From a bacterium (GTDB lineage Bacteria; Patescibacteriota; Minisyncoccia; UBA6257; HR35), in assembly GCA_037444025.1 (NCBI GenBank), contig JBBINE010000008.1:1-32913 (forward strand): a stretch of DNA of 32,913 nucleotides. The letters are read 5' to 3'. Below the pieces are notes generated by a model. That model worked only from the letters and a program-made list of their open reading frames with translations. It searched no databases and had not been told where the DNA came from. This document shows positions 4,121 through 4,949 of this stretch, one piece after another. How positions within the stretch are numbered: the first letter of the stretch is position 1; every line of letters begins with the position of its first letter. Position numbers and translations under genes: made by a program.

Positions 4121-4240
4121 CTCTTTAATTTTATTACCTTATTCCCATAACCCATAAACTCACCTAAAACCAACCCTTCTACTTATATTTAAACTTATAT
4201 CACTTGCATTTAAAAAACTTTTACCTATATTCAAACACAT

Positions 4241-4278
4241 TACTGACATTCCAATATTCTTAAGAATGTTAGAATATC
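4241..4278. repeat. Palindromic repeat copy 1
   Basis: TACTGACATTCCAATATTCTT|AAGAATGTTAGAATATC. Confidence 0.95.
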
Positions 4279-4361
4279 TCATAACCCATCTCTAACCGCT
4301 CCTTTAGGCTTTCCTCAAAACCTTCAAAACCTTCCTCAAAACTCTCTCTCCCTAAACTTTC

Positions 4362-4398
4362 TACCGACATTCTAATATTCTTAAGAATGTTAGAATAT
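4362..4398. repeat. Palindromic repeat copy 2
   Basis: TACCGACATTCTAATATTCTT|AAGAATGTTAGAATAT; 35/37 identical to copy 1, 121-bp offset. Confidence 0.95.
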
Positions 4399-4476
4399 TT
4401 TTGTAATATGGTTAAAAAAATTCTTTTAATAAATTTCAGATAAATTTCACAATCTGACAAATTTTTGGTTTATATA

Positions 4477-4746
4477 TTACTCAAATGATTTCATAAATTC
4501 AATAAATTTTTCTCCATAGGGAGAAAGTGAATGAGACATAAATCTTCCTTGATAATTTTTTCTTAAAAGTCCTGCATTAACTAATCTTCTTGTGTGCTCA
4601 GAAACAGTTTTTATGTTCCAGTTAAGTTTGTCAGTAATTTCTTCTAAAGTAATGCCTTTATTTTTAGCTACTAAAAATAATATTGTTATTCTTCTATGGT
4701 TAGACACTCCTTTAAAATATCTTTCTAATTGTTTAGGGTTTTTCAT
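4477..4746 (-). CDS. Small ArsR-like winged-helix DNA-binding protein
   Basis: SNHRRITILFL..ITLEEITDKL..NIKTVSEHTRRLVNAGLL..Y..SL wHTH pattern; contains no Cys, so no ArsR-type Cys metal site. Confidence 0.85.
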   Translation of the reverse strand: MKNPKQLERYFKGVSNHRRITILFLVAKNKGITLEEITDKLNWNIKTVSEHTRRLVNAGLLRKNYQGRFMSHSLSPYGEKFIEFMKSFE

Positions 4747-4811
4747 AGGAAAATAGAAAAAACTAGTTAAATAGATTCCGACCTTAAGTATCTAAAATTT
4801 TTCTTATTTTA

Positions 4812-4817
4812 ATTATA
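4812..4817 (-). promoter_or_regulatory. -10 box TATAAT upstream of wHTH gene; -35 position falls inside palindrome copy 3
   Basis: TATAAT at 4817-4812; 17 bp upstream is the centre of the palindrome. Confidence 0.5.
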
Positions 4818-4821
4818 CAAA

Positions 4822-4860
4822 ACATTCTGATATTCTTAAGAATGTTAGAATATCAGTAAT
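4822..4860. repeat. Palindromic repeat copy 3
   Basis: ACATTCTGATATTCTT|AAGAATGTTAGAATATCAGTAAT. Confidence 0.95.
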
Positions 4861-4949
4861 AGGTTTAAATTTGTGAATTTTGCTGGGAGTTTGAAAGATT
4901 ATTTTGGGATATTATTTATTTTAAAATGCTTTATTTATCTGGCTATAAA

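Follow-up and report, generated by a model that had tools for sequence, protein, structure and literature searches.

A winged-helix gene flanked by its likely binding palindromes: a candidate REPtron- or MITE-like cassette in Patescibacteria

Repetitive extragenic palindromes (REPs) are palindromic dispersed repeats of 20–40 bp which, in the published account (PMC3733652), are mostly extragenic at the 3′ ends of genes and sometimes intragenic, and the same account describes the REPtron, in which a RAYT transposase gene lies between REPs that its product recognises. The Rickettsia palindromic elements (RPEs), and intragenic MITEs (inverted-repeat transposable elements of miniature size), are sequences of ~100–150 bp that, as outlined in PMC10969869, are found in frame in unrelated housekeeping genes, are tolerated in the protein and have no transposase of their own. 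The locus considered in this report, located in contig JBBINE010000008.1 of a Patescibacteria genome (GenBank assembly GCA_037444025.1), includes a gene for a small winged helix-turn-helix (wHTH) protein surrounded by copies of one palindrome. The whole stretch analysed, called the window, is 32,913 bases long, and the genome that it belongs to (G000) includes 550,126 bases in 33 contigs with 28% G+C. The locus is a single example of a compact module that occurs widely among Patescibacteria and consists of a wHTH gene for ~88 amino acids (aa) and two flanking palindromes, or three in the window. It is probable that this module is a REPtron- or MITE-like cassette, in which an autorepressing gene of the ArsR fold is carried between copies of its own binding palindrome, with the palindrome also occurring as a REP/RPE-like dispersed repeat. 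Together, palindrome and wHTH gene have the look of a novel type of small DNA element that spreads and encodes the protein that binds it, and no published description of the pair was found in the literature searched, which did not extend to supplements.

The features of the locus are as follows, with coordinates in the window.
4248–4275, strandless: palindrome 1, a four-box match, beginning at 4239 when its tail is included, and 127 nt upstream of the start of the SNase-like gene
4276–4368, minus strand: spacer of 93 bp that separates palindromes 1 and 2, rich in G on this strand
4369–4396, strandless: palindrome 2, a four-box match, 80 nt past the wHTH stop codon
4477–4746, minus strand: wHTH gene, an 89-aa open reading frame (ORF) with the ArsR/SmtB fold, the sole convincing gene between the palindromes
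4839–4812, minus strand: promoter-like site of the wHTH gene, −35 TTAAGA (4839–4834), a 16-nt gap and −10 TATAAT (4817–4812), 10 of 12 positions matching the consensus and identified by consensus match only
4824–4851, strandless: palindrome 3, an exact four-box match upstream of the wHTH gene, over the −35 and spacer, reaching 4860 when its tail is included
3185–4120, minus strand: SNase-like nuclease gene, outside the unit, 311 aa, membrane-anchored, OB fold (Pfam SNase, 4e-16)

Read on the minus strand, the order is palindrome 3 with the overlapping promoter-like site, the wHTH gene, 80 nt, palindrome 2, the 93-bp spacer, palindrome 1, 127 nt and the SNase-like gene. A preliminary interpretation made from the window alone (the sequence-only reading) had placed one palindrome over the −35 position and two, 121 bp apart, downstream of the wHTH gene, and all three were found at these places, the 121 bp being counted from start to start. 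Each has the 28-bp form ATTC-N4-ATTC-TTAA-GAAT-N4-GAAT, with boxes at offsets 0, 8, 16 and 24. A search on both strands with up to 3 mismatches allowed matched only these three sequences in the window, and no four-box match was obtained in any of 100 dinucleotide-preserving shuffles of it. A count across the whole genome, one of the checks that had been proposed, gave exactly 4 full copies, the fourth in contig C11 (26825–26852); there was no further sequence with more than 14 of the 16 box positions, and the reversed pattern used as a control gave 0 matches. The palindromes had been described as 34 bp long; the 28-bp core is exact, whereas the extension past it is weak in the window and clear in relatives, where 3–5 further bases on each side are complementary. 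The claimed long terminal inverted repeats could also be found, as the arms at 4229–4275 and 4824–4870 are complementary at 83% of 47 nt, but these are largely trivial, being for the most part two copies of the one palindrome, and only a tail of 7–9 nt, TAC(T/C)GA(C/T), is extra. Each of the three copies has this tail on a single side, and at copy 3 it is in the opposite orientation. The 37-nt copies of a repeat family (D1) at 4241, 4362 and 4817 correspond to the same three places.

Hairpins formed by the palindromes had folding energies of −8.5 to −15.9 kcal/mol (z-scores −2.9 to −4.1), and on one strand copy 3 and the C11 copy are each followed by a U-rich tail, which is absent after copies 1 and 2. 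None of the palindromes was flagged by a terminator scan, and ordinary GC-rich terminators occur in the genome. An Rfam scan of the window identified two tRNAs only, with nothing at 4120–4900. Nothing resembling the spacer at 4276–4368 was found elsewhere in the genome or among the loci compared. An ORF in this region reads through palindrome 2 and stops in palindrome 1; it was rejected as a gene, its sole matches (E 0.004 and weaker) falling on the palindromes of other loci.

The wHTH protein scored above the cut-offs of several Pfam families, with HTH_24 (33.7 bits) and MarR (26.7 bits) ahead of HTH_5 (25.7 bits; cut-off 22), and HTH_27 was also matched. With the NCBIfam model for ArsR/SmtB proteins, HTH_metalloreg, the score was 39.7 bits, under the cut-off of 55, and the best sequence match in the PDB was ArsR (E 0.0015). 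An AlphaFold (AF2) model built from 31 sequences (pLDDT 93.5) predicts four helices (4–13, 17–28, 34–41 and 45–57), a beta hairpin (61–66 and 69–74) and a last helix (76–86), which is the winged-helix topology of the ArsR/SmtB family, a1-a2-a3-aR-b1-b2-a5. The top Foldseek matches to this model were ArsR, CadC, CzrA, SmtB, PagR and HlyU, with TM-scores of 0.73–0.87. The protein had been noted to lack Cys ligands, and there is indeed no Cys in the 89 aa and no His in the last helix, hence the known ArsR/SmtB metal sites are absent. Such ligands (a3 Cys or a5 His/Asp/Glu) define the metal-sensing subset of ArsR/SmtB proteins and not the fold family. A word-indexed search returned 570 candidates, 569 of which were relatives at E ≤ 0.001, the best being 60–75% identical; where these had been given names, they were only ‘winged helix-turn-helix’ or ‘MarR family’ regulators of Patescibacteria or Parcubacteria metagenome-assembled genomes. 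An extended −10 at the wHTH promoter was considered and is not claimed, as the promoter scan saw no TG at the required position.

The arrangement was examined at 31 loci of close wHTH homologues (56–100% identity), one from each of 31 genomes. A palindrome was found upstream in 22, at 13–134 nt before the start codon, and downstream in 26, with both copies present in 20. The filter missed a 23rd upstream copy, in genome G121, whose two outer boxes are both altered symmetrically. The downstream copy usually abuts or overlaps the wHTH stop codon. Relative to the end of that codon, 11 loci have it at offset −7, 4 at −16 and 9 at +1 to +14, and at offset −7 the box ATTCTAA codes for Phe and the stop. 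The genes next to the unit vary in nearly all of these loci (SNase in 2, the other being in G032, GreA in 2, an ExoX-like nuclease in 2, TspO, rsmI, trmD, ychF, enolase and others), and the next gene is convergent in about 6 of the 31, indicating that the downstream copy belongs to the wHTH unit and not to the gene that follows.

Among 25 genomes of the same family, a wHTH relative was found in 13 and the palindrome in 11 (reversed control 0). Across 201 genomes sampled from the order, the exact four-box pattern was present in 76, the protein in 69 and the reversed control in 2; both motif and protein were found in 54 and neither in 110, figures that describe the sample and are not a test, as related genomes are not independent. 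A wider scan with the exact pattern, using one genome per species, matched at least 120 stretches, of which 80 loci were listed. According to record titles, the matches listed are on contigs of metagenome-assembled genomes from many Patescibacteria lineages, among them Harrison-, Zambryski-, Taylor-, Nomura-, Giovannoni-, Lipton-, Jorgensen-, Adler-, Colwell-, Portnoy-, Yanofsky-, Wolfe-, Doudna- and Moranbacteria, contigs labelled Saccharibacteria, and a few contigs labelled Verrucomicrobiota, Kiritimatiellia, Planctomycetaceae, Omnitrophota, Bacteroidales or Gammaproteobacteria. The G+C content of the 80 loci is 0.27–0.65, and a wHTH gene lies beside the site in 15 of them, including two on contigs of 0.58 and 0.65 G+C. 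Four loci (L244, L256, L223 and L192) have the AT-rich palindrome on contigs of 0.52–0.65 G+C titled Kiritimatiellia, Planctomycetaceae or Verrucomicrobia, with a wHTH gene beside it in L244, L256 and L192 and none found in L223; either transfer beyond Patescibacteria or mis-binning would account for such high-G+C contigs. Carriage by phages was also considered and rejected, as viral contigs had neither a relative of the protein nor the exact palindrome.

More distant wHTH relatives (28–46% identical) are flanked by palindromes that have the same geometry and other boxes, and the sequence of the presumed recognition helix was found to track that of the boxes in five subtypes:
helix S[EQ]HT[RK]: ATTC-YNAY-ATTC, in all 28 such loci (of the 31) where a site was detected
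helix SEH[IA]RRLA: ATTC-TCAA-ATTC, 2 loci
helix AEHIRRLA: outer box ATTC and inner box TTTC, 1 locus
helix AEH[LM]RRLV: TTTC-N4-TTTC with centre TTAA, 4 loci
helix I[NP]HLE[RK]L: TTTC-TAWW-TTTC with centre TATA, 4 loci

Genome G007 carries two wHTH paralogues, each located between palindromes of its own type. Among the close homologues, the four bases at the centre vary with the residue that precedes the invariant His, Glu (SEH) occurring with TTAA, TTGA, TCAA or TTGC in 17 of 17 loci and Gln (SQH) with TGCA or TATA in 9 of 11. The match between five helix subtypes and five box subtypes makes it very probable that the palindrome is bound by the protein, which would thereby repress its own gene. 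No other evidence for recognition of the palindrome by the protein is as strong as this co-variation, although it is comparative only. In G000, a perfect palindrome of the TTTC type was also observed in contig C17 (13223–13250), in frame at the junction of the MGMT-like and Sua5-TsaC-like parts of a 297-aa ORF, and this genome has no wHTH paralogue of the TTTC type.

From the co-variation, the protein would bind WTTC-N4-WTTC-N4-GAAW-N4-GAAW, probably as two dimers on the four boxes, a stoichiometry that is a guess. The position of the upstream copy over the −35 and spacer of the gene's own promoter suggests self-repression. The downstream copy, normally fused to the stop codon, would form the other end of the unit and may provide cooperative binding or looping over ~300 bp, or may insulate the unit. 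In the window, the two downstream copies may also put the SNase-like gene under the control of the wHTH protein. The argument of the sequence-only reading that ArsR operators are not usually downstream of the gene is weakened here, as the downstream copies also precede this gene on the same strand.

The palindrome also occurs away from the wHTH gene, with 4 copies in G000 and up to 18 in relatives. When 65 sites from 13 genomes (G000 included) were classified with a crude ORF caller, 51 were intergenic, mostly at the 3′ ends of genes. The neighbouring genes were tandem at 35 of these, convergent at 12 and divergent at 4, at least one of the last (the C11 copy of G000) being based on spurious ORFs. 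The remaining 14 were inside ORFs, 4 of which have no Pfam support. The 10 sites in genes with Pfam support are in mnmA (two genomes), ychF, murB, tsaD, a murD-like ligase gene (two sites), trmD, argS and tspO, and all ten are in frame, eight reading H/N-S-x-I-L-x-N-x-x-x and two F-Q-x-S-x-E-x-x-N. When aligned with the G000 orthologues, the palindromic peptides correspond to gaps of 11 aa in MurB, 8 aa in TsaD and 14 aa in TrmD. The TsaD insert is present in 1 of 7 orthologues, with a clean 12-column gap at that position in two proteins of the same family. The MnmA insert is found in 4 of 30 orthologues, in the same inter-domain linker in three families and with three centre or arm types.

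Within one genome, copies of the palindrome are identical over 34–38 nt, and in relatives the flanking 3–5 bases change in a compensatory manner (AAC/GTT, GAC/GTC, GAT/ATC, CTGA/TCAG and CAATC/GATTG). Mismatches in the listed sites, judged by eye, had no preference for G.U on either strand. In relatives, the left flank is rich in A and the right flank in T, ATACAAAAC-[pal]-GTTTTGTAT. By comparison between genomes, the palindrome is a short dispersed repeat of the REP/RPE type, inserted as a unit of ~34–36 bp at the 3′ ends of genes, between convergent genes and in protein loops where the reading frame is kept.

A second kind of short in-frame repeat insertion was observed in the mnmA linkers of L132, L135, L137, L145, L127, L151 and L126 and in tsaD of G049 (L160), where many orthologues have 4–5 in-frame direct repeats of 7 bp at the place where other genomes carry the palindrome of 8-bp period. 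Examples are ATTCATA (peptide IHNSKF.I), GGAAATT and CAATGGT, and the IHNSKF peptide recurs in a TsaD loop. The fourth palindrome of G000 lies in a region (C11, 25325–28352; L004, 1193–1547) in which sfsA is broken by a 22-bp tandem duplication that shifts the frame, and the broken gene ends about halfway, reading through the palindrome (…HSNILKNVRI…). The same palindrome lies 57–357 nt downstream of sfsA, whether intact or split, in G007 and G010.

A difference in the presence of the whole unit was found between two genomes of the same genus. In G121, the order is the msrA stop codon, 2 nt, a palindrome, a promoter-like stretch, the wHTH gene, a palindrome over its stop codon, 15 nt and the msrB start, whereas in G223 msrA and msrB are separated by 9 nt with no palindrome and no scar. 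In a further genome, G221, msrB directly follows msrA, the msrA match having an in-frame stop. The region upstream of radC also varies, with one site and no cargo in G010, two sites around a PIN toxin cassette in G001, and three sites in the window around the wHTH gene and the 93-bp remnant, followed by the SNase gene. At the G001 locus (L044; contig C1, 11845–12594), the two palindromes have identical 12-nt flanks on both sides, and the 694 bp between them, with radC and a DNA methylase gene directly downstream, include the gene of a PIN-domain (VapC-like) protein. Comparison between genomes shows insertion of solo copies and of the whole unit, while binding and autorepression are suggested by co-variation and position. 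The palindrome–gene–palindrome unit behaves as an insertion cassette, with presence and absence seen once, and catalysis would have to come in trans.

This is close to what the sequence-only reading had proposed, namely a REP- or MITE-like cassette with its own binding protein that is mobilised in trans. The palindromes that flank homologues, the co-variation of motif and protein, the unit ending at palindromes at an orthologous locus where it is present or absent (a single case) and the dispersed repeat all bear this part out; movement itself, and an enzyme for it, were not seen. For the other option of that reading, a looping or nucleoid-type binding system, the observations speak neither for nor against.

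Several observations weigh against a mobile cassette. As had been noted for the unit, no transposase or recombinase gene was detected in or beside it among ORFs and Pfam matches, and no transposase-bearing relative was found. A Y1 (IS200/RAYT) transposase was considered as the mobiliser and rejected, being present in 3 of 5 genomes, with no match found in the site-rich G134 and G137, and with the copy in G000 flanked by other GC-rich hairpins. The sole case of presence and absence rests on genomes with only 66% MsrA identity, and a target-site duplication is unreadable at the msrA/msrB junction owing to the divergence of the orthologues. Recent identical copies of the unit were not found, paralogues within one genome having 68–75% DNA identity. 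Solo sites occur at the same gene boundaries across genera (3′ of sfsA, 3′ of a VKOR gene and upstream of radC), indicating that they are old and have been kept, which fits function as well as selfishness. In the sample of 201 genomes, the motif occurs without a detectable protein in 22 and the protein without the motif in 15, and the counts of co-variation ignore phylogeny, related genomes sharing both helix and box traits. Two copies of the wHTH gene in G131 were also considered as a recent transposition and rejected as assembly redundancy, the contigs being 100% identical over 3,264 bases. The Y1 gene of G000 (C23, 533–1288, in the region C23:500–1290) encodes ~230–250 aa, is the only RAYT/IS200-like gene of this genome and has a different GC-rich palindrome on both sides, AGGGACGT…ACGTCCCT, so that it looks like a separate REPtron-like unit.

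The palindromes could instead be operators of an ordinary chromosomal transcription factor with a small regulon, copy 3 serving autoregulation and copies 1 and 2 controlling the SNase-like gene, with nothing mobile involved. The upstream copy does sit over the promoter, co-variation of protein and site is typical of a transcription factor and its operator, copies 1 and 2 are upstream of the SNase gene with the same wHTH–site–SNase order in G032, and the shared gene boundaries of solo sites would also be explained; operators of ArsR/SmtB proteins are inverted repeats of similar size. However, no promoter is expected between convergent genes, where 12 of the 65 sites are found as opposed to 4 between divergent genes, and this account leaves aside the 10 in-frame insertions in housekeeping genes, the downstream copy tied to the wHTH stop whatever follows it, even a convergent gene, the lack of a common function among neighbouring genes and the unit as an indel between msrA and msrB. 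A purely regulatory role is possible but unlikely. It is extremely improbable that the sites serve chromosome organisation or replication arrest, marked by a small winged-helix protein in the manner of parS-ParB, matS-MatP or Ter-RTP, even though genomes have 4–18 sites, some intragenic, and one set is always beside the gene of the binder. The RTP of Bacillus subtilis is likewise small and of winged-helix fold; two of its dimers occupy a site of ~30 bp, and sites adjacent to its gene serve autoregulation. Against this, ParB_N genes are present in 22 of the 25 family genomes, including G000, and a replacement centromere protein is therefore not needed; the symmetry of the sites does not allow polar fork arrest, and a module missing from over half of the order would be odd for a core function. 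In one complete relative, the sites are at 127, 547, 553, 588, 677 and 679 of 680 kb, a clustering seen without reference to the origin.

Another explanation is that the palindromes are sites of an Xer-like tyrosine recombinase with an 11-6-11 organisation, and that the sequences between them are cassettes, with the wHTH gene as cargo or accessory factor. In pdif modules, IMEX elements and integron cassettes, genes are carried between 28-bp near-palindromic sites, the cargo is variable and includes toxin-antitoxin genes, and hybrid sites occur. An 11-6-11 reading fits the 28 bp studied here, their central 4 bp being near-uniform within a genome or paralogue set and different between genomes, and hybrid half-and-half sites are present in G134 and G137. 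The flanks in the window are crossed (B-pal2-C′ … C-pal3-B′), as integration of a circle into a site would give, and the PIN toxin cassette with its identical flanks and the series of one, two and three sites upstream of radC are of the kind expected. Each of the 5 genomes tested has 1–2 Xer-like tyrosine recombinases, G000 having one, but a recombinase gene is never linked to the sites. The sites are not the chromosomal dif, as the motif is lacking in 125 of the 201 genomes, and the 110 with neither motif nor protein would presumably require Xer and dif all the same. Co-variation with the wHTH helix extends to the central bases and points to the wHTH protein as the reader of the site, and single insertions of ~36 bp in essential genes are hard to obtain by integration of a circle. 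Joined or excised forms were not seen in read data that are too thin to count, the three DNA runs of one study holding small shares of the organism, as short low-depth contigs, plus others that share only the palindrome. As an alternative to the cassette, recombination sites are quite unlikely; recombination at the palindromes could also be a sub-mechanism of the cassette.

A role as RNA, either as bidirectional intrinsic terminators or as mRNA-stabilising hairpins of the REP type with a secondary link to the wHTH gene, would fit the bias to gene 3′ ends and to convergent over divergent genes, the A-rich and T-rich flanks, the folding energies and the compensatory changes in the flanking 3–5 bp. 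It is nevertheless very unlikely, as the box sequence is kept across the phylum, which a stem does not need, mismatches are not biased by strand towards G.U, the window hairpins after the wHTH gene are without a U-tract, and ordinary GC-rich terminators are available; the co-variation with the protein and the in-frame intragenic copies would also be left unexplained. A variant of the cassette that seems decidedly unlikely is a transposase-less, self-maintaining element, made up of a family of hairpin repeats of ~34 bp and a co-evolving ArsR-like protein that binds them, the binder allowing the repeats to persist and multiply. It might then shield extruded hairpins, or stall on them, with the result that they are copied during replication or repair by the host, or it might recruit a host recombinase, and bound sites may in part have been co-opted as protein roadblocks that insulate neighbouring genes. 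If true, this would define a class of bacterial selfish DNA by a DNA-binding protein and not by an enzyme.

The genes around the cassette in the window form a small nuclease and restriction island that is decaying, made up of radC-like, type IIG-like, SNase and NERD genes. The radC-like gene (2684–3088, minus strand) encodes the N-terminal domain only (UPF0758_N, 134 aa) and overlaps the start of a gene for a 675-aa HSDR_N and N6-methylase protein (type IIG-like; 729–2756, minus strand). Just upstream of the cassette, at 4930–5700 on the minus strand, a NERD-like nuclease gene is seemingly decaying, with an early in-frame TAA. It also has a TGA within LEIKT*QG, at a position that we presume to be Trp in NERD proteins. 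The 1.2 kb of the minus strand at 4870–6074 has no ORF of at least 40 aa except for a 51-aa piece.

Patescibacteria have tiny genomes with very few regulators and, to our knowledge, almost nothing is known of their cis-elements. A protein and site pair that is conserved across the phylum, with specificity rules that can be read from five helix and five box subtypes, makes binding testable in vitro. If the REPtron- or MITE-like cassette favoured here is correct, the REPtron/MITE idea would extend to an element whose only gene encodes a DNA-binding protein, and essential genes would carry in-frame copies of a protein-binding palindrome. The palindromes also account for contig breaks and for odd insertions of 10 aa in annotated proteins of these bacteria (CPR).

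In a comparison with MITEs, the ends of the unit are palindromes, a target-site duplication is unreadable and no transposase-bearing relative was found. It differs from pdif, IMEX and integron cassettes in having no linked integrase, in sites that co-vary with the wHTH protein and in single sites inside genes. With the ArsR/SmtB repressors that lack metal sites (PagR, HlyU and NolR), the protein shares five helices and a beta-hairpin wing in ~90–100 aa and a putative inverted-repeat operator over its own promoter, where it would autoregulate. Points of difference are the lack of Cys/His ligand sites, a score under the NCBIfam cut-off for ArsR/SmtB (39.7 against 55 bits), an operator of the form 12-4-12 whose four boxes are spaced by 8 bp, the fusion of a second copy to the 3′ end of the gene, and copies that are dispersed and intragenic.

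With REPs and the REPtron, as described in PMC3733652, the system shares short, mainly extragenic palindromic repeats and the gene of a likely recogniser bracketed by two copies. However, the bracketed gene encodes a wHTH protein instead of a Y1 (HUH) transposase, the repeat lacks a GTAG or CGTC tag, the number of copies is 4–18 and not hundreds, and the RAYT-like gene of the genome has other hairpins. The in-frame inserts in unrelated ORFs are like those of the RPEs as presented in PMC10969869, a likeness and not membership, as length and host range differ. The inserts described here are ~34–36 bp long, and they differ from RPEs in carrying a conserved motif that is probably bound by protein and in having a dedicated gene for the putative binder.

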